From an uncultured Desulfospira sp. (GTDB lineage Bacteria > Desulfobacterota > Desulfobacteria > Desulfobacterales > Desulfobacteraceae): DNA of 64,000 nt. The stretch spans positions 4,864,001 through 4,928,000 of the forward strand of contig OY760175.1 in the NCBI GenBank assembly GCA_963663165.1, read 5' to 3'. Below are positions 47,433 through 64,000 of this stretch, in pieces. A model generated the notes under the pieces. That model had not been told where the DNA came from and made no database searches. It saw only the letters and a list, made by a program, of their open reading frames with translations. A program made the translations under genes and the position numbers. Every line of letters begins with the position of its first letter. The stretch's first letter is position 1.

Positions 47433-48016
47433 TTTTATTCCTATATTGCTCTTTTGGGCCCCCAAAAATCAATTATAGACCCGTTTTAGAGGGTATTTAT
47501 TAAGCTATTTCCTTAATTGACAGCCTTCTTGCTCGGTCCCGACCCGCTTTGCATTTTTCCTTAAATCAGGAATTAATTTACCCAAATATTGGGGTTAACT
47601 TTCGGGCTATCCTTTGTTTTTGAGTGGTTTATAGCTGTTTTTAAACTATTTCTGTCTCATTGTATTTGTTTGTATTTCCTTTGATTTTAATAGATTACAA
47701 AATCTTAACGGTTTTTAACAGTGGTTTTTTCCCCAAAATGGGCGGATTGTGATTTATAAGACTTTGAATTGCCCATAATCTGAACCGCATATGTTGACGG
47801 CAGTGCAGCAGGGGCCAAAGCCGGTGCCTCATAGGACAAAGCTTATACGGATTTGCAGACCGTCATGTATAATAAGGAGAACCCATCATGAAAAAACCCT
47901 GGCCGTTTTTATTGCCCTATGGCTGGTGTTGCTCACTTTCGGGGCTGCGCCCCCCTGCCTTGCCAGCAACGTGACGATAACCAAATTAGTGGGTAATCCC
48001 CCACTATCGAATAATA

Positions 48017-49448: not shown

Positions 49449-49977
49449 GAATAATAAGATAGCCATTTCCGTCTCCATTGATCCTTGTGATACCCTCCTA
49501 TATGCATACAATTATTATTATGTCGATAAGGTCGAGGGCAAAGAAGTGTTACTTTATGAAAGCGCTATTGAATGCAAAGATCACGAATTGTCAATCAGCT
49601 TGCCCGAAAACTTTTTGCTGGGCAACCCTGTATACCTTAAGGTGGTTGTTCGGTCGGAATTTTCAGAGCTTGGCTCCGCGCAAATTGATCTCAGGGAGTG
49701 TGAACTTGCTGGTGAGTGGGTTAACGCCACGCTTTCCTATAACCCCCATGTCCTAGCGGACACAACGAAGCATGAAACACTTGCAAATTTTGAAAAAAGG
49801 TCATAGCCCGGATGGCCACCCAAAATCCCCCACTTATGGCCACCTCAAAATCCCCCACCTGAGCGTTTAAAAAATCAGGCGTAATCGCTGATAATCAGGA
49901 AATTCAGGAAAAACGGCGACAGAACGTTTAAATTCCCATGTATTACCCGATCAATCTAATCATGGGAGTTGGAAAGG

Positions 49978-52620
49978 ATGAACGTTTTGAAACCAGAAAA
50001 ACAGGCAGCAATCAGCACATTACTCAACAAGAATGTAAGCCAGCGAGAAATCAGCAGGAAAACTGGTATTGACCGGAAGACAGTACGCCGATACATACGT
50101 CAAAACGCTCCCGGATCAATCCAAATTCCCCCACCGGAGGCCACATCAAAATCCCCCACCCCGGCCACCGATCAGATTGGAAAGCCCCCACCCCGGCCAC
50201 CGGCTGATTCAGTGGATTCAGGCCCCATACCGTTTCACGCAAGATCCGCCTGTGAGCCTCACCGGAAATGGATTGAAGACCAGGTTCGACTGGGCAGAAA
50301 CGCCATGGCTATCTATCAGGATCTGGTGGAGCAGTTCAGTTTTGAACATAAGTACAACAGCGTTAAACGCTTTGTCCGCAAGTTAAAGCGCAAAGACCCC
50401 AAGCAGTTTGACCGACTGGAGTTTAGGCCTGGAGAAGAAGCCCAGGTGGATTATGGCCAAGGCGCCTTAACCAAGGGGCCGAATGGCAAATACAAACGTC
50501 CCCGGTTATTTGTGATGACCCTGAAATATTCCGGGCGCTCCTTTCGCAAGGTGGTCTGGAAATCCAGTCAAGAAACCTGGGCCAGGCTCCATGAAGAGGC
50601 GTTCCGGTATTTCGGTGGTTGCCCTGAATACGTGGTCTTAGACAATTTAAAAGAGGGTGTTATCAAGCCGGATATCTATGAGCCTGAGTTGAACCCGGTT
50701 TATGCAGCTGTACTGGCTCACTACGGTGTAGTAGCAGACCCGGCCAGGGTACGAGATCCCGACCGCAAGGGCACGGTGGAGAATGCCGTTCAGCATACCC
50801 AGAATACAGCCCTGAAAGGAAAGCAGTTCGACACCATTGAAGCCCAGAATGAATGGCTGATGCACTGGGAAGAAAGATGGGCATCAACCCGGATACACGG
50901 CCGGAAGAAACGGCAGGTGGAGGAGATGTTCCAGGAGGAAAAGCCCCATTTGTCCCTCCTGCCGTTGAAAGGGTTTGAATATTTTCGCCAGGAGACCCGC
51001 ACAGTGTATGATGACGGAACTATCCAGGTAGACTCATGCTATTATTCCGCCTTGCCGGCGCCGTTGCACCAGGAAATCATTGTCCGGATTTATGAAACAC
51101 AGATTGACATCATCAATCCCCGGACCATGGAAAAAATCCGCACCCATATCAAAGGCGACCGGCCCGGAGCGGTTAAGATGGAGGAGGAAGACCGGATCTT
51201 CAATCCATCCCGGCAAACAACCAGCCTTTTGAATAAAGCCGAAAGTATCGGTCCTGCGACGAGACAGCTATGCGAACTGATTTTCAAGGAAAAGGGACGC
51301 CCCGGACAGCGCCGGATGCAGGGCATTGTCAATCTTGCCCGGAAACATGAGGCCGGCAGTATTGAGGCGGCGGCCCAAACAGCCATAGAGAAGGGATTGC
51401 GCAGTTACAAATCCTTTTGCCGGCTGGTTGAACACCAGAAATCATTTACAGATACCAGACCACAAGAGGGTATCAGCCAGGAGCATGAACTGATCCGGCC
51501 GTCAAATGATTACGGTCAGTTTTTCGACACGTATGCTGCAGGTAATCAACCCGTTATCTCAAAACAGGACCTGCCAAAGGTATGGCAAAGTGCCGACTGG
51601 TTGAAGGTGATGGCCGTTTTCGGCCTTGAGCCCCAAAAGAACAAAAAAGACGAAATCTGGATTCAATCCCCTTTTACCGGAGAACAGAACGCCTCTTTGC
51701 ATGTGCATCTGGGGCAGAATGTCTACAAGGACTTCAGCAGCGGCAAAGGCGGTGGAATCCTCAATTTCTGCCAGGATCTGCTCGCCCGCAAAGGGCGGGT
51801 GATGAACTGCTACCAAGTGGCGGAATGGATGATCAGCGAAGGCATTTCAAGCCTGAACAAACCCGTGGCCGTTGAGCCCAAACCAACTCCAGAAAAGAAT
51901 CAGGCCAACCCGCCGGTGAGTATTGATCTGCAACCGTTTCTGGAAATCGTTCATCCGGAACTTGAAAACCGGGGGATTTCCAATAAGGCCTGCAGATACC
52001 TGGGATGCGGATATCTGCCCAAGAGAGCCACAGGCAAAAGTTCTCCATTAAACGGAAGAGTGGTCTTTCAGGTGCGAGGGATCAGTCCGGAACTAACCCC
52101 TGTCATTCTAAGCCATGTCGGCCGTGCATTGACAGACCATCAGGCTGACCTGGATGGCAGATACTGGGGCTTTCCTTTCTCCAAAAAGCTGGAAATCTAC
52201 AACCAGGACAAACTGCTGCTGGACCCAAACGCCAGGGATCAGGTGGAACGATATGGCTTGACCCTTGTGGAGGGCTTTTTTGATGTGGCAGCCCTGGTGT
52301 CCGCTGACTGTTTGAATGCAGGCGCTCTCATGGGAGCACATCTGGCAGTGGAACAGGTTCTCCAACTCAGGTTTCTGGCATCACATATGGATATAAACAA
52401 GGTCAACCTTTTCCTGGACCGGGATGAGGCTGGAAGTAAAGGGACCCGGGCTGCGGCATCACTACTTACGCACCATGGGTTTACTGTAAATGTGTTTGAC
52501 TGGAACCACCGGTTCAGCCGGCCTGGATGTCCACCTGCAGGGATCAAGTCCGATATAAAAGATCCGGCGGACATGTCTGAAACCCAGCTCAAATACTTAA
52601 GAAAACAAGGGATGATTTAA
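49978..52620 (+). CDS. istA: IS21 transposase IstA fused to a C-terminal DnaG-like (ZBD-like plus TOPRIM) module
   Basis: HTH ISRKTGIDRKTVRRY; DDE AQVDYG / VLDNLK / KGTVE; then SPFTGEQNASL..YKDFSSGKGG, LVEGFFD, FLDRDEAG, KDPAD. Confidence 0.88.
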   Translation: MNVLKPEKQAAISTLLNKNVSQREISRKTGIDRKTVRRYIRQNAPGSIQIPPPEATSKSPTPATDQIGKPPPRPPADSVDSGPIPFHARSACEPHRKWIEDQVRLGRNAMAIYQDLVEQFSFEHKYNSVKRFVRKLKRKDPKQFDRLEFRPGEEAQVDYGQGALTKGPNGKYKRPRLFVMTLKYSGRSFRKVVWKSSQETWARLHEEAFRYFGGCPEYVVLDNLKEGVIKPDIYEPELNPVYAAVLAHYGVVADPARVRDPDRKGTVENAVQHTQNTALKGKQFDTIEAQNEWLMHWEERWASTRIHGRKKRQVEEMFQEEKPHLSLLPLKGFEYFRQETRTVYDDGTIQVDSCYYSALPAPLHQEIIVRIYETQIDIINPRTMEKIRTHIKGDRPGAVKMEEEDRIFNPSRQTTSLLNKAESIGPATRQLCELIFKEKGRPGQRRMQGIVNLARKHEAGSIEAAAQTAIEKGLRSYKSFCRLVEHQKSFTDTRPQEGISQEHELIRPSNDYGQFFDTYAAGNQPVISKQDLPKVWQSADWLKVMAVFGLEPQKNKKDEIWIQSPFTGEQNASLHVHLGQNVYKDFSSGKGGGILNFCQDLLARKGRVMNCYQVAEWMISEGISSLNKPVAVEPKPTPEKNQANPPVSIDLQPFLEIVHPELENRGISNKACRYLGCGYLPKRATGKSSPLNGRVVFQVRGISPELTPVILSHVGRALTDHQADLDGRYWGFPFSKKLEIYNQDKLLLDPNARDQVERYGLTLVEGFFDVAALVSADCLNAGALMGAHLAVEQVLQLRFLASHMDINKVNLFLDRDEAGSKGTRAAASLLTHHGFTVNVFDWNHRFSRPGCPPAGIKSDIKDPADMSETQLKYLRKQGMI

Positions 52621-52649
52621 GGGATGAAAAAAGAAAAAAAGGAGGTATC

Positions 52650-53429
52650 ATGAGTATGACGACCACGGAACTTGAAAAACACTTAAAAGAACTCAGGCTG
52701 AGCGGTATGCAGGCTACCCTGGAAAGCCGGGCATTACAGGCCAATCAGTCCAATGCAAGCCTTGTCGAAGGGCTGTCATGGCTGGTTCAGGATGAACTGG
52801 ATCATCGTTCTTCAAATCTTAAACAACGCAGATTCAAGGCATCCGGCCTGGATGAACTCCAGACGCTGACGGATTTTGACTGGGGGTTCAATCCAAAACT
52901 TCCTAAAAAGGAAATTTATGAACTGGTGACCGCCAAGTTCATAAAAAATGGAGAGCATGCCCTTTTAATCGGTGCGCCGGGTACTGGAAAGAGCCGGATT
53001 GCCAAAACCATTGCCCACGCATCTGTTCAATTGTTCCAGAAAACCTTGTACCGGGAGGCCCATGTGTTTTTTGAAGACATGTTCGAAGCCGAACAAACCC
53101 ATAATCAGAAAAAGATCTTCAAACTGTTTACACAGGCGGATCTTTTGGTTATTGATGATTTGTTCCTTCGTAAAAGAATGCCCAACGATGCGGCCGATTA
53201 CCTGCTGGATATCATCATCAACCGATATTCAAAAAGGAAGAGTACGGTAATAACGTCAAACAGACCCCTTGAAGACTGGGGCTTGCTGCTCAAAGACAAT
53301 GCCGCATCATCGGCCATACTGGATCGGCTGCTCCACCATGGTCACCTGCTGAAGTTCGAAGGGAAAAGCTACCGTCTCAAGGAAGCCGCTAAACGGCTCT
53401 CTGCGCCACAAAATAAGAACGAGGGATGA
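52650..53429 (+). CDS. istB: IS21 helper AAA+ ATPase IstB
   Basis: LKELRLSGM, DFDWGFN, GAPGTGKS, LLVIDD, ITSNRP..DW, AILDRLLHH, GKSYR. Confidence 0.95.
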   Translation: MSMTTTELEKHLKELRLSGMQATLESRALQANQSNASLVEGLSWLVQDELDHRSSNLKQRRFKASGLDELQTLTDFDWGFNPKLPKKEIYELVTAKFIKNGEHALLIGAPGTGKSRIAKTIAHASVQLFQKTLYREAHVFFEDMFEAEQTHNQKKIFKLFTQADLLVIDDLFLRKRMPNDAADYLLDIIINRYSKRKSTVITSNRPLEDWGLLLKDNAASSAILDRLLHHGHLLKFEGKSYRLKEAAKRLSAPQNKNEG

Positions 53430-54453: not shown

Positions 54454-54748
54454 TTAAGCAGAACGGTTTTCCCAATAATCTGGCTTACGTTTATGTGAGC
54501 AACCGCAATGATTCGAATATGATCAGGTTCAATTGAATAAATGAGGTAGTAAGGGAACCTTGGAACCAAATAACACCTAAATGGTGCTTGCAAAATCCGA
54601 TATACGAATGGTGAGTCTGAAATTTGCTTAGCGGCAGACTCAATGGCAACTCGAAACCGCGTCCCAGGCCATTTTGACACTCTTCATAATACAAGATGGC
54701 TTCTAAGAATTCTTCCTTGGCTTCAGGGTCAAATCGTACCGGATTCAC
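54454..54748 (-). pseudogene. RelE/ParE toxin with two frameshifts
   Basis: F.PEAKEEFLEAILYYE....GLG..F / RFPYYLIY....IRIIAVAH / KRKPDYWENR split by frame changes. Confidence 0.8.
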
Positions 54749-54978
54749 TTGGCGATTAATCTTTCATCGTCTGAAAAAACTTCATGCGCTGGTATTCCAG
54801 GACGTAGCCCTTTCTGATATTCTTGATACCTACGCTCCGCTTCATCAAGCCATGCAATATCAATATCACTCAATGGGCTTTCGTTAAGAGAACTTAATAG
54901 GCGATCAGCCAAAAAGGCCCTTTCCTGAACAGAGAGATCAAGGGCTTCGTTTTCTATTTTTTTTAGTAAGTCACTCAT
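54745..54978 (-). CDS. Addiction-module antitoxin (TIGR02574-like)
   Basis: EALDLSVQERAFLADRLLSSL, AWLDEAERR; overlaps the toxin start. Confidence 0.85.
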   Translation of the reverse strand: MSDLLKKIENEALDLSVQERAFLADRLLSSLNESPLSDIDIAWLDEAERRYQEYQKGLRPGIPAHEVFSDDERLIAK

Positions 54979-55072
54979 ATTTTTCAAATCCTTGCATTTG
55001 TTTTTAATATCTCAACAATAATACCATACTTTGAAAAAAATTGAGAAGGGTTCTTCAGTTCATCGTTTCGGA

Positions 55073-55187
55073 AGCTAACGCCGGAGTGGTACCGGTCACT
55101 CCGGCGTTGATCAAGGCGCGCGGAGCGCGCCTTGATCAACGTTAAAATCACCGGTTTATCCGGTGATTTTTCTGGTTGGGGTTAAGC
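55073..55187. repeat. Three consecutive hairpins with attC-like boundaries
   Basis: AACGCCGGAGTG/CACTCCGGCGTT, GTTGATCAAGGCGCGC/GCGCGCCTTGATCAAC, AAAATCACCGG/CCGGTGATTTT; minus strand GCTTAAC...GTTAGCT. Confidence 0.6.
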
Positions 55188-55234
55188 ATAGTACCCCGGA
55201 ATTCGATTGAAAAATATGCAGCCTTTGCTGTAAA

Positions 55235-55561
55235 TCAGGCAAAAGCACTTCTGAGGGGTCTGGCTTTTTCTATTCGCGCTTTTCTTTCCGGGTTATGCAA
55301 GACGTTCCATATGTCAATACGTCTTTGTAAATTCAACCAAAATTCCGGCGTGTTTTCAAATACTGTTCCAAGCATCAATGCGGTATCAACCGTGATGGCT
55401 CTTTTCCCGGTACACAGTTCATTAACTGTCCTGCGGCTTACTCCCATTGCCTGGCCAAGTTGCCCTTGAGTGATCCCTAATGGTTTAAGGTATTCCTCGG
55501 TGATTATTTCCCCCACGCTCACAGGCTTTCTTTTTGTAATAATCATTTTGTACCTCATCAT
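55235..55561 (-). CDS. higA: HigA family antitoxin
   Basis: GEIITEEYLKPLGITQ..L...MGVSRRTVNEL..GKRAIT, TPEFWLNLQ. Confidence 0.92.
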   Translation of the reverse strand: MMRYKMIITKRKPVSVGEIITEEYLKPLGITQGQLGQAMGVSRRTVNELCTGKRAITVDTALMLGTVFENTPEFWLNLQRRIDIWNVLHNPERKARIEKARPLRSAFA

Positions 55562-55854
55562 CTGTAATCATGGTTGTCCAGATAAATATGTCCCGCCTCG
55601 CCCCGAACATCATCCCATGTAAAGATTAGTCGCCATTGTTTATTAACCCTTATAGAATGTTTCCCTTTTAATGTCCCTGTCAATTTTTCAAAATGATTAC
55701 TTGGAGGAGTACGCAGATCCAAATCACAAGTTGCATCATCAATGATTTGCAATTTTCTAAAAAGAACATCTCGAATTGAAGATGGTATTTTTTTATGATT
55801 GACATCGTCGATAAAAAAATCCTGGAGCCATTTATGGCGAAAAGTTGCAATCAT
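55558..55854 (-). CDS. higB: HigB toxin (RelE superfamily)
   Basis: MIATFRHK.L, DLRTPPSNHFEKL.G, SIRVNKQWRLIF.W. Confidence 0.92.
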   Translation of the reverse strand: MIATFRHKWLQDFFIDDVNHKKIPSSIRDVLFRKLQIIDDATCDLDLRTPPSNHFEKLTGTLKGKHSIRVNKQWRLIFTWDDVRGEAGHIYLDNHDYR

Positions 55855-55889
55855 GGTTACACAGTAACACTCATGGTTACATTAGTAAA
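55855..55889 (-). promoter_or_regulatory. higBA promoter/operator, probably leaderless
   Basis: TTTACT -17 bp- (TG)tTACTGT -6 nt- ATG; overlapping palindromes GTTACACAGTAAC and TTACATTAGTAA. Confidence 0.6.
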
Positions 55890-56176
55890 GTTTTATATGA
55901 TTTTTTTCATCCGTGCCATGAAACCAAATTACACCGTTATTTAAAAACATGTAACGAAAAAACTGTATCATGTTTAAATGCATAAGATATTGTAAAGTAT
56001 AGACAATAAAACCTCCTTGCGGCATGATAGCTTTTATATATGCGGCTGGATTAACATCAGTTATCCAGAATCAATTACCACAAGGAGGTTTCAATGGAGA
56101 GTATGCACTACATCGGAATGGATATCCACAAAAAAATAATTGCATTTTGCATTAAAACCTTTAGCGGGACATTAAT

Positions 56177-58022
56177 CCCAAAATAAGTGTGAAATAAGTA
56201 ATAAAAATGAGAAAAAAGTCTCGAAACGCCTATCAATAAAGAGTATAATGAGTTTGGCAAAACGAACTATACCAAATTGAAAGGGCGTTTCGAGTGAATA
56301 AGAATATCATCAAAAAATTGGCAAAACGCAAGAAAAAAATAAGCAAAAAACTGAACAAAAGAGATTGGACTGAGCAGCCAACTCCCATGCTAAAGGCATC
56401 CAATATCCAGTATGAGATCGACGGTCGCCTTCAGGGAATATCACATGGAGGCATTGGCCTGATCCATATGTTGGCCAAAAAGACCGGCCTTTTGAAAGAA
56501 ATCGATAAAGAACTTGAGCTGCTCAAGCGCCATTTGCCATATCATGAATCTGATCATGTCGCCAATATGGCATACAATATTCTTGCAGGCGGAACCTGTC
56601 TTCAGGACATTGAATTGCAAAGAAACAATGATGCCTGGCTTAATGCTCTGGACGCAAAAATGATCCCTGATCCGACAACGGCAGGGGATTTTTTGCGCCG
56701 GTTTTCCCAGGAAAATATCATTACCCTGATGGATGTGAAAAATACCATACGGAAAAAAATATGGGAAAAGCAGCCTCAAAATTTCAAAGAATCAGCCATC
56801 ATCAATATTGACGGAACTATCAGTGAGACAAGCGGCAAGTGCAAACAGGGTATGGACATCTCCTACAATGGTAAGTGGGGGTATGCCCCGCTGGTTGTTT
56901 CTCTGGAGAGAACAAGGGAACCTCTTTATGTCATCAACCGCTCGGGCAATGCCCCGTCCCACCTTGACTCTGCCCGGTGGGTGGATAAGGCTCTTGATCT
57001 GACGGAAGGCACTTTTAAAAAATTATACGTTCGGGGAGATACGGATTTCAGCCTTACCACGCACTTTGACAAATGGGATCAACGTTGTTCCTTTATTTTT
57101 GGCATGGATGCCAGATCAAATCTAACAAAACGTGCAAATGCTCTTCCTGAAACCGACTGGGTCAGGCTTGAAAAACTGTCTGCGAAAATTAAAACTCAGC
57201 CCCGGAAACGTCCTGAGAATATCAAACTTCAAGTGGTGAAAAAGCGCAAATTCAAACGCATAGAGACTGCGTATGAACATATAGCCGAGTTTGAATACAA
57301 ACCGGGAAAATGTCAAAAACCATACAGAATGATCGTTTTGCGTAAAACAATAAACGAGTTCAAGGGAGAATTACTACTGTTCGATGATATCCGCTACTTT
57401 TTTTATATTACCAATGATTGGAAAAAACCGGCCAAACAACTGGTAGCCTTTTACCGGAAACGGGCTGACCACGAAAATGATATTGAACAGTTGAAACATG
57501 GCGTACGTGCTATGGATAATCCTTCAGACTCTTTGAATGCCAACTGGGCCTATATGGTTATTACCTCCATGGCATGGGATCTGAAAGCCTGGTATGGGCT
57601 GCTGATGCCATATCGTGCATTAGGGCTTTCCATCATCCGCATGGAATTCAAGCGTTTTATCCAGACATTTATAAACATCCCCTGTTTAATTTTGAAATCT
57701 GGCAGGGCTATAAAATATCGAATTATTGGCTATAACAACCGGCTCCAAAGCATGTTCAAATATTTTGATTTTATAAGGACCGTCCGGGTTACATGATGCC
57801 ATTGCTCTCCGGATAGTTATTGCAAACGGGTTGCAATGGCGAGTCCAAACCCTGCAGTCTCAAAAAAGGAATGACAAAAACATGAAACACAAGACAACTG
57901 GCAATACTCAAAAAAACTGGGGACTCGTGTTTCTACTGGATGGCAAGTTGGTGGCCAAAATAATACCTCAAACGGCGGGTTGCTCATGAGTATATCTTTT
58001 TTGAAAACGCGCTTGTTTTGGG
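56177..58022 (+). mobile_element. IS1380-family element (1846 bp)
   Basis: CCCAAAATAAGTGTG ... CGCGCTTGTTTTGGG; ATTAAT duplicated on both sides. Confidence 0.92.
56294..57796 (+). CDS. IS1380 family transposase
   Basis: IPDPTTAGDFLRRF, NIDGT, VRGDTDF, YRKRADHENDIEQLK, NWAYM. Confidence 0.92.
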   Translation: MNKNIIKKLAKRKKKISKKLNKRDWTEQPTPMLKASNIQYEIDGRLQGISHGGIGLIHMLAKKTGLLKEIDKELELLKRHLPYHESDHVANMAYNILAGGTCLQDIELQRNNDAWLNALDAKMIPDPTTAGDFLRRFSQENIITLMDVKNTIRKKIWEKQPQNFKESAIINIDGTISETSGKCKQGMDISYNGKWGYAPLVVSLERTREPLYVINRSGNAPSHLDSARWVDKALDLTEGTFKKLYVRGDTDFSLTTHFDKWDQRCSFIFGMDARSNLTKRANALPETDWVRLEKLSAKIKTQPRKRPENIKLQVVKKRKFKRIETAYEHIAEFEYKPGKCQKPYRMIVLRKTINEFKGELLLFDDIRYFFYITNDWKKPAKQLVAFYRKRADHENDIEQLKHGVRAMDNPSDSLNANWAYMVITSMAWDLKAWYGLLMPYRALGLSIIRMEFKRFIQTFINIPCLILKSGRAIKYRIIGYNNRLQSMFKYFDFIRTVRVT

Positions 58023-58994
58023 ATTAATCAAACAAGGAAAACTTCCCGCAACACGCAAGGCTCTTAGCAATTGGCTGGAGGGTTTGCCCCAGCCATGGAC
58101 CGCTGCGATGGAAGCCACATTATTTACAGCTTGGATATACGATTTTCTAAAGCCACATGCCCAATCCATCAAGGTGGCGCATCCTGAAATGCTGAAGGCC
58201 ATTACAGCCGCAAAGAAAAAAAATGATGTATCAGACGCTGAAAAGATAACTGATCTGCTAAGGGTGGATATGTTGCCGGAATGCTATATGATGCCGCAAG
58301 AGCTTAGGGATCTTAGAAGGGTATTACGCTATCGCAACCATATTGTTAGGACGGCAACAAAAGAAAAAAATAAAATCTCAGGCTTATTGATGGAAGCCGG
58401 CGCCCAGTATAATAAAAAACGGCTACACGGGAAGAAATATTTTTCAGAGCTTCTGGACACCGTGGAACATGTCCCTGATTCAGTAATCAATATGCTCAAA
58501 TTGAGCCGCTCTAATCTTGAAATATTTACGGATACACAGAAAAGGCTGGTACATACCATGAAGGTGAACGATCTCATACGAGACCGTGTCGAGCGCCTTT
58601 TAACAATTAGAGGCGTCGGTGAAGTTACAGCGCTGACCTGGGTTCTTGAGGTAGGTGAGCCTGAGCGGTTTCATTCAATTCGCCAGGCCATCAGCTACTG
58701 CGGACTTTGCGCCGCCCAAAAAGAATCGGCGGGCAAGGAGTATCGCGGACCGATCTCTAAAAAGAGGAACAAACACATTCAAACGATATTGATTGAGGCA
58801 GCCAAACTGGCCCCTGTCTGGAACCCCCAATTGGCTGAAGTTCACCAAAAAGAACTGGCCAAAGGCAACAAGAATAGAGCGACTCTGGCCGTCGCCCGAA
58901 AGTTGGTTGCGTATATGCTTGCTGTGGATAAAAGTGGGCAGCCATTCCAGGTCAAGGAGTCAGAAATGGCAGCATAATTGATCATGAAAAAGCA

Positions 58995-59200
58995 TTCGCA
59001 TGTATGGTTCTTCCTGCCGTTTCATGCAGTCTGGGGACTGAGTGACTGGTTTTAAACCATGATACTCCAGTAACGTGTTTCATGACCGGCAGGTTCCCCA
59101 AATTTAAACTTCTGCGATAGTCATCAGACCAGATGACTTGATGCAGCAAATGGATGTCTGGTCAAAAGAACCGATTTTTAGAACCGATTCTTTTTGGCAC
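58995..59200 (+). ncRNA. Candidate bridge/seek RNA of the IS110 element
   Basis: Stem CCTGCCG/CGGCAGG with internal loops TCTGGGGAC and TAACGTGT; downstream ATGGATGTC identical to the element end; boundaries approximate. Confidence 0.6.
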
Positions 59201-59342
59201 AAAATTGATTAAGTTCCAATGCATGGCGTTTGTTTTCAGTAGTTTAGGGTAGTAGTAGGGTTACCGCCAAGAATGGATGGCTTTGGGTTGGGCAGGGGAG
59301 TTTTATTTTTTACTTGACAATACTTATCATGGATGTCCCCGG

Positions 59343-59417
59343 AATTCTATACCTGTTTTAGGGGGTGTTTTTTAAGTTAATTCCTTAATTGACAAGCCTC
59401 TTGCTTGGTCCAACCCC
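59343..59417. repeat. Diverged copy of the upstream end of the 46.6-47.5 kb Y1 transposase element
   Basis: GTTTTAG.GGGT.TTT.TTAAG..A.TTCCTTAATTGACA..C.TCTTGCT.GGTCC..ACCC shared with about 47471-47546. Confidence 0.7.
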
Positions 59418-59992
59418 AAATCAACCAAATCACCAAATCCCTCATGTCCCTGCATTAAGTAAAGTAAGTAAAGGGGTCATAAAGGGGTCAGGCTTGACAT
59501 TTACTTCAAGGGATCTGACATGGATGGTCAGTCCCCGGTCCTCCTCTTTTAATAAAGTCAATTGAGTATTGCGTTATAATGGCCAACCGACGGGAAATAA
59601 ACGATTTCATAACCGTCCCCTGGATAATTAATGCTGGAGGAAGGTCAAGGCTTTTTTATCTTCGGAAGCATGGCTTATGAATACATCCCAATTCGATTGT
59701 TTAACATCCATCAGTAAAACCCATTAAAGTTAACGCCAACATCTGCGGCTTGTCCGTCAGCATGTTTTTGTTAGTTTTCTTCTATGAAAAAGATCTTGAC
59801 AATTTAATTTTACTCTGACCCCAATTATCTGGTTGCCCCGGATGATGCCCTGGTTCCAGATGCCGATAAAACTGCCGGCAGTCAGGCCGCAGTGGATGGC
59901 TGTGATCAACGTCAGTTATAATACCCGCCGAACGACAATTAGAATTCCCGAAATTTAACACTCATAAAAAGGGGTCAAGTATAAAAAGGGGA

Positions 59993-60129
59993 AAAGGGGT
60001 CAAGTCTACCTTTGACCCTTAATTGCATTCTTCCTCACATAATCACATGAACTATGGCAGAGGGTTGAACATGGTTCCCCTTTGACCCAACTTTTTAAAC
60101 TATGGGTCAAAGGTAGACTTGACCCCTTT
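59993..60129. mobile_element. MITE with perfect 26-bp TIRs of the GGGGTCA class
   Basis: AAAGGGGTCAAGTCTACCTTTGACCC ... GGGTCAAAGGTAGACTTGACCCCTTT. Confidence 0.75.
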
Positions 60130-60262
60130 ATGACCCAAATGAGAAGTCTTTTACCCAACGTATTACTTTTTTTTCATAAAAGTGTTACCTTTTTTCTATA
60201 GAAAAATCTACCCAAAAATAGCATAAATCAAGGTAGTTGCACCTTTTCGCCCAAGGCGATGA

Positions 60263-60278
60263 CGGCATGTTTTTTGCT
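60263..60278 (+). promoter_or_regulatory. sigma-54 promoter candidate
   Basis: CGGCATGTTTTTTGCT (GG-N10-GC) upstream of the exported-protein start at 60458. Confidence 0.6.
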
Positions 60279-60457
60279 TCTTTGTCTAAAGCCATATGCT
60301 AAACCGAAATTGAATATCAATAAATGTAATACAACTGAAAGGAGGAAGTTAAAGAAGATTTACCTGCAAGTGGCGCTATGGTTTTTATTCGGTATAGCAT
60401 CTACAGTAATACTTTCATAATTTGGTATTTTATAATTCAAAAAAGGAGAAATAATAG

Positions 60458-60581
60458 TGAAGAAGATATTTTTAGCAGGATTGGCAACAAGTTTACTAAT
60501 TCTGGGTTTGCTTGGCCTCGCAAATGCAGCATCGATTTCTAATTTTGAAGCCGTTTATGATTCTAACCTTGAACAGCTAAA
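60458..60581 (+). pseudogene. 5' end of a secreted protein gene truncated by IS1380
   Basis: AAGGAG RBS; MKKIFLAGLATSLLILGLLGLANA|ASISNFEAVY signal peptide. Confidence 0.65.
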
Positions 60582-61055
60582 CCCAAAACAAGCGTGAGAT
60601 AAGTAATAAAAATGAGATAAAATCCTCGAAACGCCTATCAATAAAAGGTATAATAAGTTTACCACAACGAAATATACCAAATTGAAAGGACGTTTCGAGT
60701 GAATAAAAATATCAACAAAAATTTGGCAAAACGCAAGAAAAAAATAAGCAAAAAGCTCAACAAAAGAGATTGGGATGAACAGCCAGCCCCTATGTTTAAA
60801 GCATCCAACATTCAATACGAGATTGACGGTCGCCTCCAAGGGGTTGCTCCCGGCGGCATAGGGTTAGAGCCTGGTTGAATCTATCATGAAGCCTGGTTGA
60901 ATGCTCTGGATGCAGAAATTATCCCCGATCCCACTACAGCCGGAGACTTTTTGCGCCGGTTTTCCAAGGAAGATATCATAACTCTGCAGGACGTCAAAAA
61001 TACCATCCGGAAAAAGGTATGGGAAAAGCCTATGACCGCAAATGACGGTTGGTAT

Positions 61056-62810
61056 TTATTTTGCATCTGCTGGACAAAACAGCGTTGAGATTTTTACCGT
61101 TAATTCAGTATCCCTTATCATTTTTTTGATCCCCGGGAATATTTTGCAATTGTTTTCAGCCGCCTTGGTCAGCTCTTTTTGTACCAGATCAGCATCAATT
61201 TGTGAAAACCTTTCTGCCAGGTTGGAACATCCATTGAGAATAATCTCCATATACTTGTCGTTTTTTAAATTTTGCACCAGCGGCGTGTCGGCAAGGACCG
61301 CTTTTAGCATTTTGTTCAGCGATCCCATGCCGGTTTTTTTCCGACCTCGTCGTTTTTCATCCCGGAAAAATCTCTCCAGAAGGTTATTCGTCCTCTGTGG
61401 TTGGACCGTAAAAATTCCGTCCGATGTGACGACTGGTATCGGGTCGGCAAAGAGCTTTTCCCAGTATTTGTCAATCTGTGCCACCATGTTAGCATAGGTT
61501 TTTTGTCTGTGTTTATTCTCAAGGAGCCAGTTCCTGAATTCAGTCACTTTTTCTTCAATACTTTTCATGTTCATGGAATCGCCATTATCATTAATGCCAT
61601 TTTTGCCATCAGGAAGGGCAATTCGCATAGCACAACGCAGCTTGTCAAATACGGCTGCCTTTGATTCCATGTTTTTGGCAAGATCATTAAGACGCTTATC
61701 TTCTACGACTTTTATGACTACTTTATATAATTGGGAAAAGGCTCTGTTTAAATTTGCTGCCTCACTGAGGTTCACGGTCATGATTTGTTCCAGCAACCGG
61801 AGAACATCTTGAAGACGTCGATAAAAATCAAGGTATGGACGGTCAAAAGGGAAACCATATCCGTTGGATTGATTTGGATAGTCAAATATCCAATGGATTA
61901 AAGCATATGCCATAATCGTGGGGATATGATCGAAATCAGTTGCCTGCCAATTCCCACTTTGAAGGCTCTCAATAATTTCATCAATATCCTTGCCGACCGG
62001 ATCAATTTTTTTCTCAAGATACTTGGCCTGCCTCCTCAATGCAGGTCGAACCTTGAGTTTCTTTAACCGTTTCTGCAAAAAACTATATTCATCAGCTAGC
62101 AGGTCTTTGCCAATGTCACGCAGGAAATGAAAATGACATATAAAATCGGGTGTCCCTGGGAAAACTTCCTCCACCGCACTGACAATCCCTTTACCCATAT
62201 CGTGTACGAGTGCCCTTGGTTCACCATACTGCTCTTTGATGCTACGGAAAAATGGGATGAGCTCATCTTTTTTCTCTGAAGAAATTTTTACCGTATCAAG
62301 GACCAGTTCTGAGAGTCCGTCAAGGCCGCAAAATAGATTGGGGCTATCACCTTCACAAGTTCCATCCACATGAAGGATATATCCTCCCCTGCTTGTGAAG
62401 AACTTTCGCAGAGCCGGCCGGCTCTGTCGGTGAGCCAGGGCAAGATAAATGATAAACTTACGGCCCAGAAAGCTGATCTCCCGTTCAGAGATGAATACAT
62501 TCTTGATCGCCAATTCAGCCATGACCTCCTGATTGCTGAGACAACGGACAAAAAGTGCAAACCCCACCTCCACAATGACATCAAACCCGAAAGTGCCGCC
62601 CCTGGGTACAAGGTTTCGAAGCTGTTCGGACCTGAACGTTCCGTGACCGTGGGGGCAATACAATACCGTTTCCTTGGCAAAATAGGCACCGATGTCCATG
62701 GTGACCCTGGTCTTCGTATCGGTTTTCTGAACATGGAGTGTAGAATTACAATCAGGGCATTTTAAAATTTCCGGGTAAAAATGCAAAGTCGGCTTTGCTG
62801 AGAATAGCAC
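61056..62810 (-). CDS. DDE transposase catalytic ORF (Zn-ribbon, CxxH; Mutator/ISL3/IS66-like, family uncertain)
   Basis: CPDC..CPHGH; LHVDGT, VHDMG, ICHFHFLRD, RTNNLLERFFR. Confidence 0.85.
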   Translation of the reverse strand: MLFSAKPTLHFYPEILKCPDCNSTLHVQKTDTKTRVTMDIGAYFAKETVLYCPHGHGTFRSEQLRNLVPRGGTFGFDVIVEVGFALFVRCLSNQEVMAELAIKNVFISEREISFLGRKFIIYLALAHRQSRPALRKFFTSRGGYILHVDGTCEGDSPNLFCGLDGLSELVLDTVKISSEKKDELIPFFRSIKEQYGEPRALVHDMGKGIVSAVEEVFPGTPDFICHFHFLRDIGKDLLADEYSFLQKRLKKLKVRPALRRQAKYLEKKIDPVGKDIDEIIESLQSGNWQATDFDHIPTIMAYALIHWIFDYPNQSNGYGFPFDRPYLDFYRRLQDVLRLLEQIMTVNLSEAANLNRAFSQLYKVVIKVVEDKRLNDLAKNMESKAAVFDKLRCAMRIALPDGKNGINDNGDSMNMKSIEEKVTEFRNWLLENKHRQKTYANMVAQIDKYWEKLFADPIPVVTSDGIFTVQPQRTNNLLERFFRDEKRRGRKKTGMGSLNKMLKAVLADTPLVQNLKNDKYMEIILNGCSNLAERFSQIDADLVQKELTKAAENNCKIFPGIKKMIRDTELTVKISTLFCPADAK

Positions 62811-62860
62811 ACTAGTTTGGACGGACCCAGTCAGCTTGGAGATAAAGCTTTTGAGCAGTT

Positions 62861-63526
62861 TTAATGCTTGGAATCCGGAATTTTTTTTAACAACTCATGA
62901 GACTCCATAAATCCTTGGATATTAGCCGGCTTTAGTTTGCTCTTTTTGATCTCCGGCAAGCCCAAAATGTCTTCTGCGGATATGCCATGATGCCTGATAA
63001 TAGCAACCAGAATCATGACTGCTTCCTGGTCAGAAATGGAAATAGCCGCTTGACGGAGGACAAGGGAACTCCTTTGTTTTACTTGATTTTTAAATATTGA
63101 AATGTTGTCAGAGAAGTAGACATAGACACCAGCGTGCTTTTCTCGACAGATACCCGGACAACTACGGAAATGATGCACAAAGGATTGTGGTGATAACCCA
63201 AGAAGTTCACCAAGTTGTCTGCCGGTAAGCCCTTCAGATGAGGAGTTCACTAAATGGATAATGGTTTTTTTTAGATTACCATACTTAGAGAACGCGGCAT
63301 TTTTAAATTGCCATATACCATAAACGTCAAATTGAGGGATTTCAGGCAAAGTATAATACTTCCCGTTTTGATTGTAACTTGTGTAGGTCTTCCACTGTTT
63401 AAGTTTTGTTTGGGCAGTTCTGGAGGAACAATCCAGAATTGAAACAAGCTTTTTGAGGGTAAAAATTTTTTGTTTTTTAAGCGTTGATCTGGCCGATTCA
63501 ATTTTTTGAACGTCGATAATAGGCAT
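62861..63526 (-). CDS. Upstream HTH-like ORF of the same IS
   Basis: GAGG RBS then MPIIDVQK; CSSRTAQTKLK, TSYNQNGKYYTL, GLTGRQLGELLG. Confidence 0.75.
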   Translation of the reverse strand: MPIIDVQKIESARSTLKKQKIFTLKKLVSILDCSSRTAQTKLKQWKTYTSYNQNGKYYTLPEIPQFDVYGIWQFKNAAFSKYGNLKKTIIHLVNSSSEGLTGRQLGELLGLSPQSFVHHFRSCPGICREKHAGVYVYFSDNISIFKNQVKQRSSLVLRQAAISISDQEAVMILVAIIRHHGISAEDILGLPEIKKSKLKPANIQGFMESHELLKKIPDSKH

Positions 63527-64000
63527 GACAACCTCTCTTCGTAGTATATGATATTTGTGCCAAATAATATCATATACTACGAAGCAATAACAGGAAAAAT
63601 AATCCATTTCGCCCAGAATCTTAGAGTTTTTCGATTCAACGACTAAAACATATACTTTGCAAATTGAAACAAGTTGTATTAATTGAATTAAAAATCAGTT
63701 GGTTGAAAAAATCCAACTGTCATTTGCGGTTATAGGGAAAAGCAGCCGCAAAACTTCAAGAAAGAAGCCATCATCAATATCGACGGCACTATCAGTGAAA
63801 CAACCGGCGAGTGCAAACAGGGTATGGACATCTCTTATAATGGTAAGTGGGGATATGCCCCTCTGATAGTCTCTCTGGAAAAAACAAGGGAGCCTCTTTA
63901 TATAATCAATCGATCCGGCAATGCTCCGTCCCACCTCAACTCTGCGGGTTGGGTGGATAAGTCCCTTGATCTGCTGGAAGGCACTTTTAAAAAATTATAC

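Follow-up and report, generated by a model that had tools for sequence, protein, structure and literature searches.

Several traits of the closest described insertion sequences are already known from the accessible parts of two reports (PMC11187229; PMC11208160): guidance by an RNA, its location 3′ of the gene, the order of its guides, natural retargeting, and landing in the repeats of other elements. ISPa11 targets REP repeats (PMC11187229). Repeats of another kind belong to the TIRYT/TIRtron elements. As far as the accessible text of PMC3733652 (Di Nocera et al. 2013) and 10.1101/279083 (Quentin et al. 2018) describes them, these repeats carry GGGGWSAS, inverted copies of GGGGWSA flank class-2 Y1 genes, and solo copies and dimers occur too. 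To judge from sequence comparison, positions 59008–59200 of the window (the whole stretch of 64,000 nucleotides of DNA that was analysed) very probably encode the two-loop bridge RNA belonging to an element of the IS110 family, IS1111-like in layout and usually guided to TIRYT repeats.

The window element is an IS110-family copy that is dead as it stands. It runs from core to core over 55971–59336, and its recombinase gene is split by an IS1380-type insertion (Table 1). Together the two recombinase pieces total 1032 nt, or 343 codons and a stop, just as long as the gene is in intact relatives, among them P0001, to which the 3′ piece is 92% identical. PF01548 and PF02371 score above cut-off and NF033542 reaches 177 bits (cut-off 140), giving an N-terminal DEDD RuvC domain and a C-terminal catalytic-Ser domain, and an alignment of 14 recombinase sequences shows D10, E56, D94, D97 and S261 to be invariant. 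The non-coding DNA comprises about 360 nt at the right end, downstream of the gene, against 120 nt at the left end. The IS1380-type element itself (56177–58022) has several copies of more than 99% identity in the same genome (G000), and an 80–86% relative at 60578 (region 60578–64000) is broken up by a MULE-like transposase unit whose terminal repeats lie near 61029 and 63736.

Table 1. Features of the element, its bridge RNA and the adjoining target DNA, by window position
Feature	Position	Strand	Basis or detail
Remnant start of TIRYT-like Y1 gene (ATG GCA CGG ATG AAA AAA), about 50 nt inside the target repeat	55902..55919	-	L007
Left target half GTATCA and left core TGT (55971-55973)	55965..55973	+	left end starts after TGT in relatives; 7/9 to guide 59070-59078
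Left end, carrying the donor right half TTAAATGC, the -10-like TTAAAT, a short subterminal inverted repeat that starts at 55982, and the ribosome-binding site	55974..56093	+	
Recombinase 5′ piece (MESMHYIGMD...) with the first catalytic Asp and, at its end, the 6-bp duplication ATTAAT	56094..56176	+	alignment
IS1380-type element (DDE_Tnp_1_4) inside recombinase gene; second ATTAAT at 58023-58028	56177..58022	+	
Recombinase 3′ piece, carrying the E, D, D residues and QKESAG, the catalytic Ser motif	58029..58977	+	PF01548, PF02371, NF033542
Target-binding stem-loop of predicted bridge RNA	59013..59093	+	outer helix: 98.8% of cells paired, 8/12 pairs with two-sided changes
Right target guide TCTGGGGAC	59030..59038	+	pairs with right-flank top strand, 8/9; covariation
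Left target guide GTAACGTGT	59070..59078	+	left-flank sense, 7/9; covariation
Right donor guide AATTTAAAC	59101..59109	+	complement of left end 55972-55980, 8/9
Left donor guide AATGGATGT	59149..59157	+	right-end sense (59328-59336), 8/9
Right end, with the -35 TTGACA (59314-59319), a subterminal repeat reaching to 59327, CATGGA as donor left half and TGT (59334-59336) as core	59314..59336	+	
Right target half CCCCGGA and ATT, outer end of GGGGACA-type terminal repeat	59337..59346	+	repeat also found beside Y1 genes at G000:C1:4421592 and 4426329

Genome, metagenome and Acidobacteriota-group loci agree in highly conserved ends, with TGT followed by TTRAATGNATAAG on the left and CTTATCATGGA followed by TGT on the right. 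Because this left end is conserved, the left boundary is placed 8 nt outside the one first proposed. The empty site reconstructed in the original prediction has no copy in the genome; TTTAAATG belongs to the conserved left end, and the empty site is therefore GTATCA-TGT-CCCCGGA. The corrected 16-mer, GTATCATGTCCCCGGA, occurs as one empty site in G000, with eight sites lying within one mismatch of it, and agrees at 13 of 16 positions with the composite guide, whose target had been correctly derived. The identity of the two copies of ATGGATGTC, at 59150–59158 and 59329–59337, also stands, except that the last C (59337) is target DNA and not part of the element.

BLAST, motif and profile searches of G000 recovered one full copy of the element and one 33-nt right-end remnant, with no further copies or orphan guide RNAs. 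On the minus strand at G000:C1:4412425–4412457, a lone right end and target half stand with no other part of the element, adjoining a GGGGTCA-type hairpin. Contigs of four sequencing runs (at most three samples, from two studies) held no empty-site or circle joint; short joints from 59163 to 59313–21 were set aside, their sides being 18–24 nt long and having no assembly counterpart. TTGAC(A/T) is found at the same offset in 124 of 131 right ends, and 138 of 147 left ends carry a −10-like TTGAAT, TTAAAT or TAGAAT, which lies 17 nt after it when read across the circle junction, where a promoter is predicted to form. Such a junction promoter is known for IS1111-family elements from the accessible text of PMC11187229.

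All the strings on which the original prediction was built are present at their coordinates, including the stem arms 59013–59019 and 59087–59093, and the 8/9 match between the first guide and GTCCCCGGA (59335–59343) was reproduced. Taken as a whole, the 363-nt region has a fold no more stable than those of its shuffles (z 0.19), so the evidence from a single sequence is weak and relatives were needed. The first hairpin alone has a fold z of −2.9 against mononucleotide shuffles, and its stems show compensatory changes across 54 homologues. Over 54 aligned sequences the two-loop structure is 94.5% paired, as against 32–47% for slid controls, and two-sided changes occur at 20 of its 30 pairs, with none in the outer donor stem. 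Covariation supports the guide RNA that had been proposed; the proposal had missed the second donor guide (59101–59109). A small hairpin placed by RNAalifold at columns 189–199 has no covariation, and the outer donor stem was put there instead; Rfam, searched over 55000–61000, gave just two weak matches at chance level, both outside the RNA region.

In both the target and the donor loop the top-strand guide comes first. The 9 + 9 nt of target guide overlap on GT, giving an apparent 16-bp target, and junctions that keep the target base at the first or the third position of the TGT trinucleotide suggest that strand exchange takes place there. At 59095–59100, in the outer donor-loop stem, the closest relatives have TTACCC and the window has TTCCCC, which breaks one pair; this change is possibly decay after inactivation.

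Relatives were drawn from genome contigs (80 loci, the best 80 of 135), from 161 genomes of the same family (17 matches), from metagenomes (79 loci, the best 79 of at least 253), and from 401 genomes of the phylum of one Acidobacteriota record, six of which supplied 24 loci. The first set counted the window copy and left out two duplicates, three loci whose left ends were uncertain, one whose right end was doubled, and those that had no flank or no parsed guide, while the metagenome set, parsed by nearly the same rules, was used as a replication. Both target guides covary with their flanks in these two separate sets, about 160 relatives in total, so that this test, one that the original prediction had set for itself, did not refute it. 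Left guide and left flank agree at 4.23 of 6 positions in the first set (shuffled 2.21; 62 distinct pairs) and at 4.28 in the metagenome set (shuffled 2.15; 60 pairs from 70 of the 79 loci that are the best of at least 253), and right guide and right flank agree at 5.02 of 7 (shuffled 3.93; 43 pairs) and 5.23 (shuffled 3.96; 44 pairs, again from the best 79 of at least 253 loci); in each comparison none of 20,000 shuffles, which ignored kinship, reached the observed value. The clearest evidence of covariation is natural retargeting at ten loci, where the right guide lacks GGG and the flank matches the guide at 7–9 of 9 positions, with 9/9 in four. GT plus C is retained even in these retargeted members. 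Flank matches are poor at L051, L069 and L079, at 2–3 of 7.

The donor guides vary with the ends of the element, with few independent changes. In the first set a left-end G goes with C in the RNA in 67 of 67 cases and an A with U in 9 of 9, one other being unmatched, and in the metagenome set (the best 79 of at least 253 loci) four loci break this rule, three having G with U and one A with C. Right ends that read CATAGA go with ATAGA donor guides in 7/7 cases in the first set and in 2/2 in the metagenome set, under the same selection of the best 79 of at least 253. A few loci have unusual joints. The element at L081 stops at the DNA that encodes its left donor guide, and this DNA is joined straight to a normal target half, having acted as a false right end. 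At L134 the right end runs directly into the 3′ half of a sibling bridge-RNA gene, the joint lying exactly at the core of that gene's left target guide, which suggests recombination at guide-encoding DNA, and at L035 and L175 a few terminal bases of the right end are tandemly duplicated before the target.

As to the sites themselves, 125 of 144 parsed right guides end in GGG(A/T)C, and the right flank takes the form xG(T/A)CCC in 101 of 124 cases, which marks these as GGGGAC- or GGGGTC-type sites. The prediction that relatives would share the target therefore holds for most of them, with the ten retargeted loci and other sites in some Acidobacteriota-group genomes falling outside it. The further prediction, that the repeats of Y1 elements are targeted, agrees with a strong enrichment of class-2 Y1 genes on the inner side: such a gene lies within 100 nt to the left at 20 of 101 loci, against 1 of 95 to the right (outside), where the count rises to 2 of 95 within 400 nt. 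Most of the adjoining Y1 genes have their starts pointing away or their ends pointing in, which is the geometry of two terminal repeats, and an inverted partner of the site accompanies 8 of 62 distinct sites on their left and none of the 62 on their right. Neither an adjoining Y1 gene nor an inverted partner accompanies 43 of the 62 distinct sites, which may be solo repeats. Among the 23 Acidobacteriota-group loci examined no Y1 gene was seen near the insertion; in this group the copies in G344 (4/4) and G355 (3/5 clearly) sit in short GGGGWSAG palindromes, and those of G424 and G518 occupy other sites. Guides in G162 and G165 match the resident Y1 ends at 14/16, where other guides reach 10–12, and those of G163 and G164 match at 11–12/16 and do not stand out.

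Within G000 the best agreement with the composite guide is 14 of 16 positions, reached by 11 sites, where simple arithmetic leads one to expect about 3. All 11 follow one repeat consensus, and two are ends of Y1 elements. A pattern search for the target repeat returned 17 copies in this genome, of which three adjoin Y1 genes and four make up two inverted dimers. Repeats of matching type border Y1 genes here and in relatives, many reading GGGGWSA and then C, T or A, and other Y1 genes in G000 carry GGGGTCA-type ends. The window's left flank is also present at L007, where it continues into a Y1 reading frame (MARMKRIVVPGYPHH), of which the window retains the first codons alone.

The right flank (59343–59420) resembles the DNA upstream of another Y1 gene of the window (about 47470–47540) and a third site in the genome; several relics of GGGGTCA-type terminal repeats lie at 59473–60136, among them a 32-nt inverted pair at 59993–60129 and, at 59816, a copy of a repeat type that other guide variants target. 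Directly behind the Y1 start remnant, where the Y1 gene would otherwise stand, 55235–55854 encodes a HigA-family antitoxin and a HigB-like toxin, and a second small toxin-antitoxin-like pair is found at 54491–54987. An IS21-like pair spans 49969–53429, and its 883-aa IstA-like protein seems, from inspection of the translation by eye, to have a long primase-like C-terminal extension.

How these guides relate to the repeats can be read in other ways. The guides could be real and their link to the repeat incidental, with the clade preferring GTCCC-like sites, Y1 repeats being the commonest matches to them, and no selection for tracking. The 43 of 62 distinct sites without a Y1 sign, the GT plus C kept in retargeted members and the several lineages off the repeat all fit such an account. 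We nevertheless consider it unlikely, given that GGG(A/T)C is found in 125 of 144 guides, though the retargeted members show that it is dispensable, and that the variable halves of the guides fit distinct repeat subfamilies in G162 and G165, though not clearly in G163 and G164. Covariation of both donor guides with the ends, in a conserved internal loop arranged like the target loop, weighs against another account, in which the first hairpin alone works as a short seekRNA, the protein recognises the ends, and the end matches are leftovers of end duplication. That an 82-nt seekRNA is enough for ISEc11 is reported in the accessible parts of PMC11187229, and L081 suggests that a DNA copy of the left donor guide can serve as an end, but on balance we find this account very improbable.

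It is hardly tenable that the matches arose by chance or that GTCCCCGGA is part of the element's own end. A lone 9-mer match is weak, ATGGATGTC occurring 100 times in the genome, and the z of 0.19 for the full-region fold would be in keeping with chance, but right flanks vary among relatives and track the guide, so that covariation in two separate sets refutes both ideas, and the exact empty site is present in the genome.

The reading that we prefer, a two-loop bridge RNA usually guided to TIRYT repeats, draws on the ends, the four guides and their covariation, the RNA stems, the identity of the repeat and the polarity of insertion, all of which come from comparing sequences, and it suggests the following cycle. 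The element would excise as a circle, in which the joined ends would create a promoter (TTGACA, 17 nt, TTAAAT) transcribing the recombinase and the RNA. Once bound by the recombinase, the RNA would open the 16-bp target with its first loop and the circle junction with its second, and the DEDD/Ser recombinase would exchange strands at the common (T)GT core, the probable position of exchange. The usual target of the clade is the GGGGWSA terminal inverted repeat of TIRYT elements, along with its solo and paired copies, and insertion takes a fixed orientation in which the element's left end faces inward; guide variants match different repeat subfamilies. The repeats may serve as safe landing sites, as first proposed, or may be inactivated by the insertion. 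The window copy inserted into the upstream repeat of a Y1 element that has since been reduced to its first codons, and the IS1380-type insertion later inactivated it.

It is possible, although we lean somewhat against it, that this clade represents a third and uncatalogued architecture of bridge RNA, set apart from IS621 as well as from strict IS1111, with two matching loops of reversed order, 9 + 9-nt guides, 16-bp GT-core sites and a SAG catalytic finger, and that its guides have diversified to track Y1-repeat subfamilies across several phyla. If true, the clade would be parasitic on a single class of mobile element under the direction of its RNA, and its recombinase, reprogrammed in nature, would recognise a longer site than the current tools do. 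The terminal repeats of TIRYT elements join the REP, attC and Tn21 repeats on the list of targets of RNA-guided IS elements, and a large clade with well-resolved guides, ends and natural retargeting offers a natural data set for the pairing rules of reversed-order bridge RNAs. The clade also supplies candidate recombinases with an apparent 16-bp site, and its insertions mark the ends of poorly studied Y1 elements.

Among known systems, the IS1111-family elements ISEc11, ISKpn4, ISPst6 and ISPa11 (Siddiquee et al. 2024, accessible parts of PMC11187229) likewise have their non-coding region 3′ of the gene, place the top-strand match 5′ of the bottom-strand match (59030–38 before 59070–78 here), and have a junction promoter (predicted from sequence here), a protein of about 340 aa and natural retargeting. 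As far as that text describes them, they differ from the clade in its clear donor-binding loop and its TIRYT-repeat target. A perfect subterminal repeat of 5–10 bp was found in 120 of 122 elements of the clade, with a median of 7 bp and 17 nt between the repeats, whereas strict IS1111 members have, in the accessible sources, repeats of 11–13 bp with extensions of 7 (or 6) and 3 bp; the strict IS1111 motif GL-P----S(t)G is also absent, GLC..Q..S[AG]G standing in 14/14. On account of repeat length, spacing and catalytic motif, the element is therefore filed as IS110-family and IS1111-like, not as IS1111, although the looser repeat range of 7–17 bp given in the accessible text of Durrant et al. 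takes in 76 of 122 elements.

The TIRYT repeats agree with the target, which is their GGGGWSA inverted repeat, and the main text of PMC3733652 names no IS110 or IS1111 element; nor does the accessible text of 10.1101/279083 report such an insertion into them. The table in Fig. 1C of PMC11208160 has three similar proteins with an empty ISfinder column, the readable portions of its supplement do not contain the clade's end motif, and no link between IS110/IS1111 and TIRYT repeats was found in a literature search outside which lay subscription papers, ISfinder and bioRxiv supplements. The clade is widespread, nameless and apparently uncatalogued, and its preferred target is apparently unreported, while its core mechanism is known.

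IS621 and ISCro4/IS622 (Durrant et al. 2024, PMC11208160; 10.1101/2025.05.14.653916), in the accessible parts of these reports, resemble the clade in having two internal loops with four guides and a target and a donor with a common short core, and IS110 elements are described there in REP repeats. The clade's RNA, in contrast, lies 3′ of the gene, its guide order is reversed in both loops, its core is (T)GT and not CT, and its apparent site has 16 bp as against 14. Protein similarity to IS621 and ISCro4 is weak, with E-values of 4e-8 and 2.5e-9, and in pairwise comparison similarity to IS5075/IS4321 is equally weak, at 24–25% identity. IS4321 is reportedly a case of an IS110-family element landing in the terminal inverted repeat of another mobile element; the host element of the clade described here differs from that of IS5075/IS4321 in being of the HUH Y1 type and not a DDE transposon.
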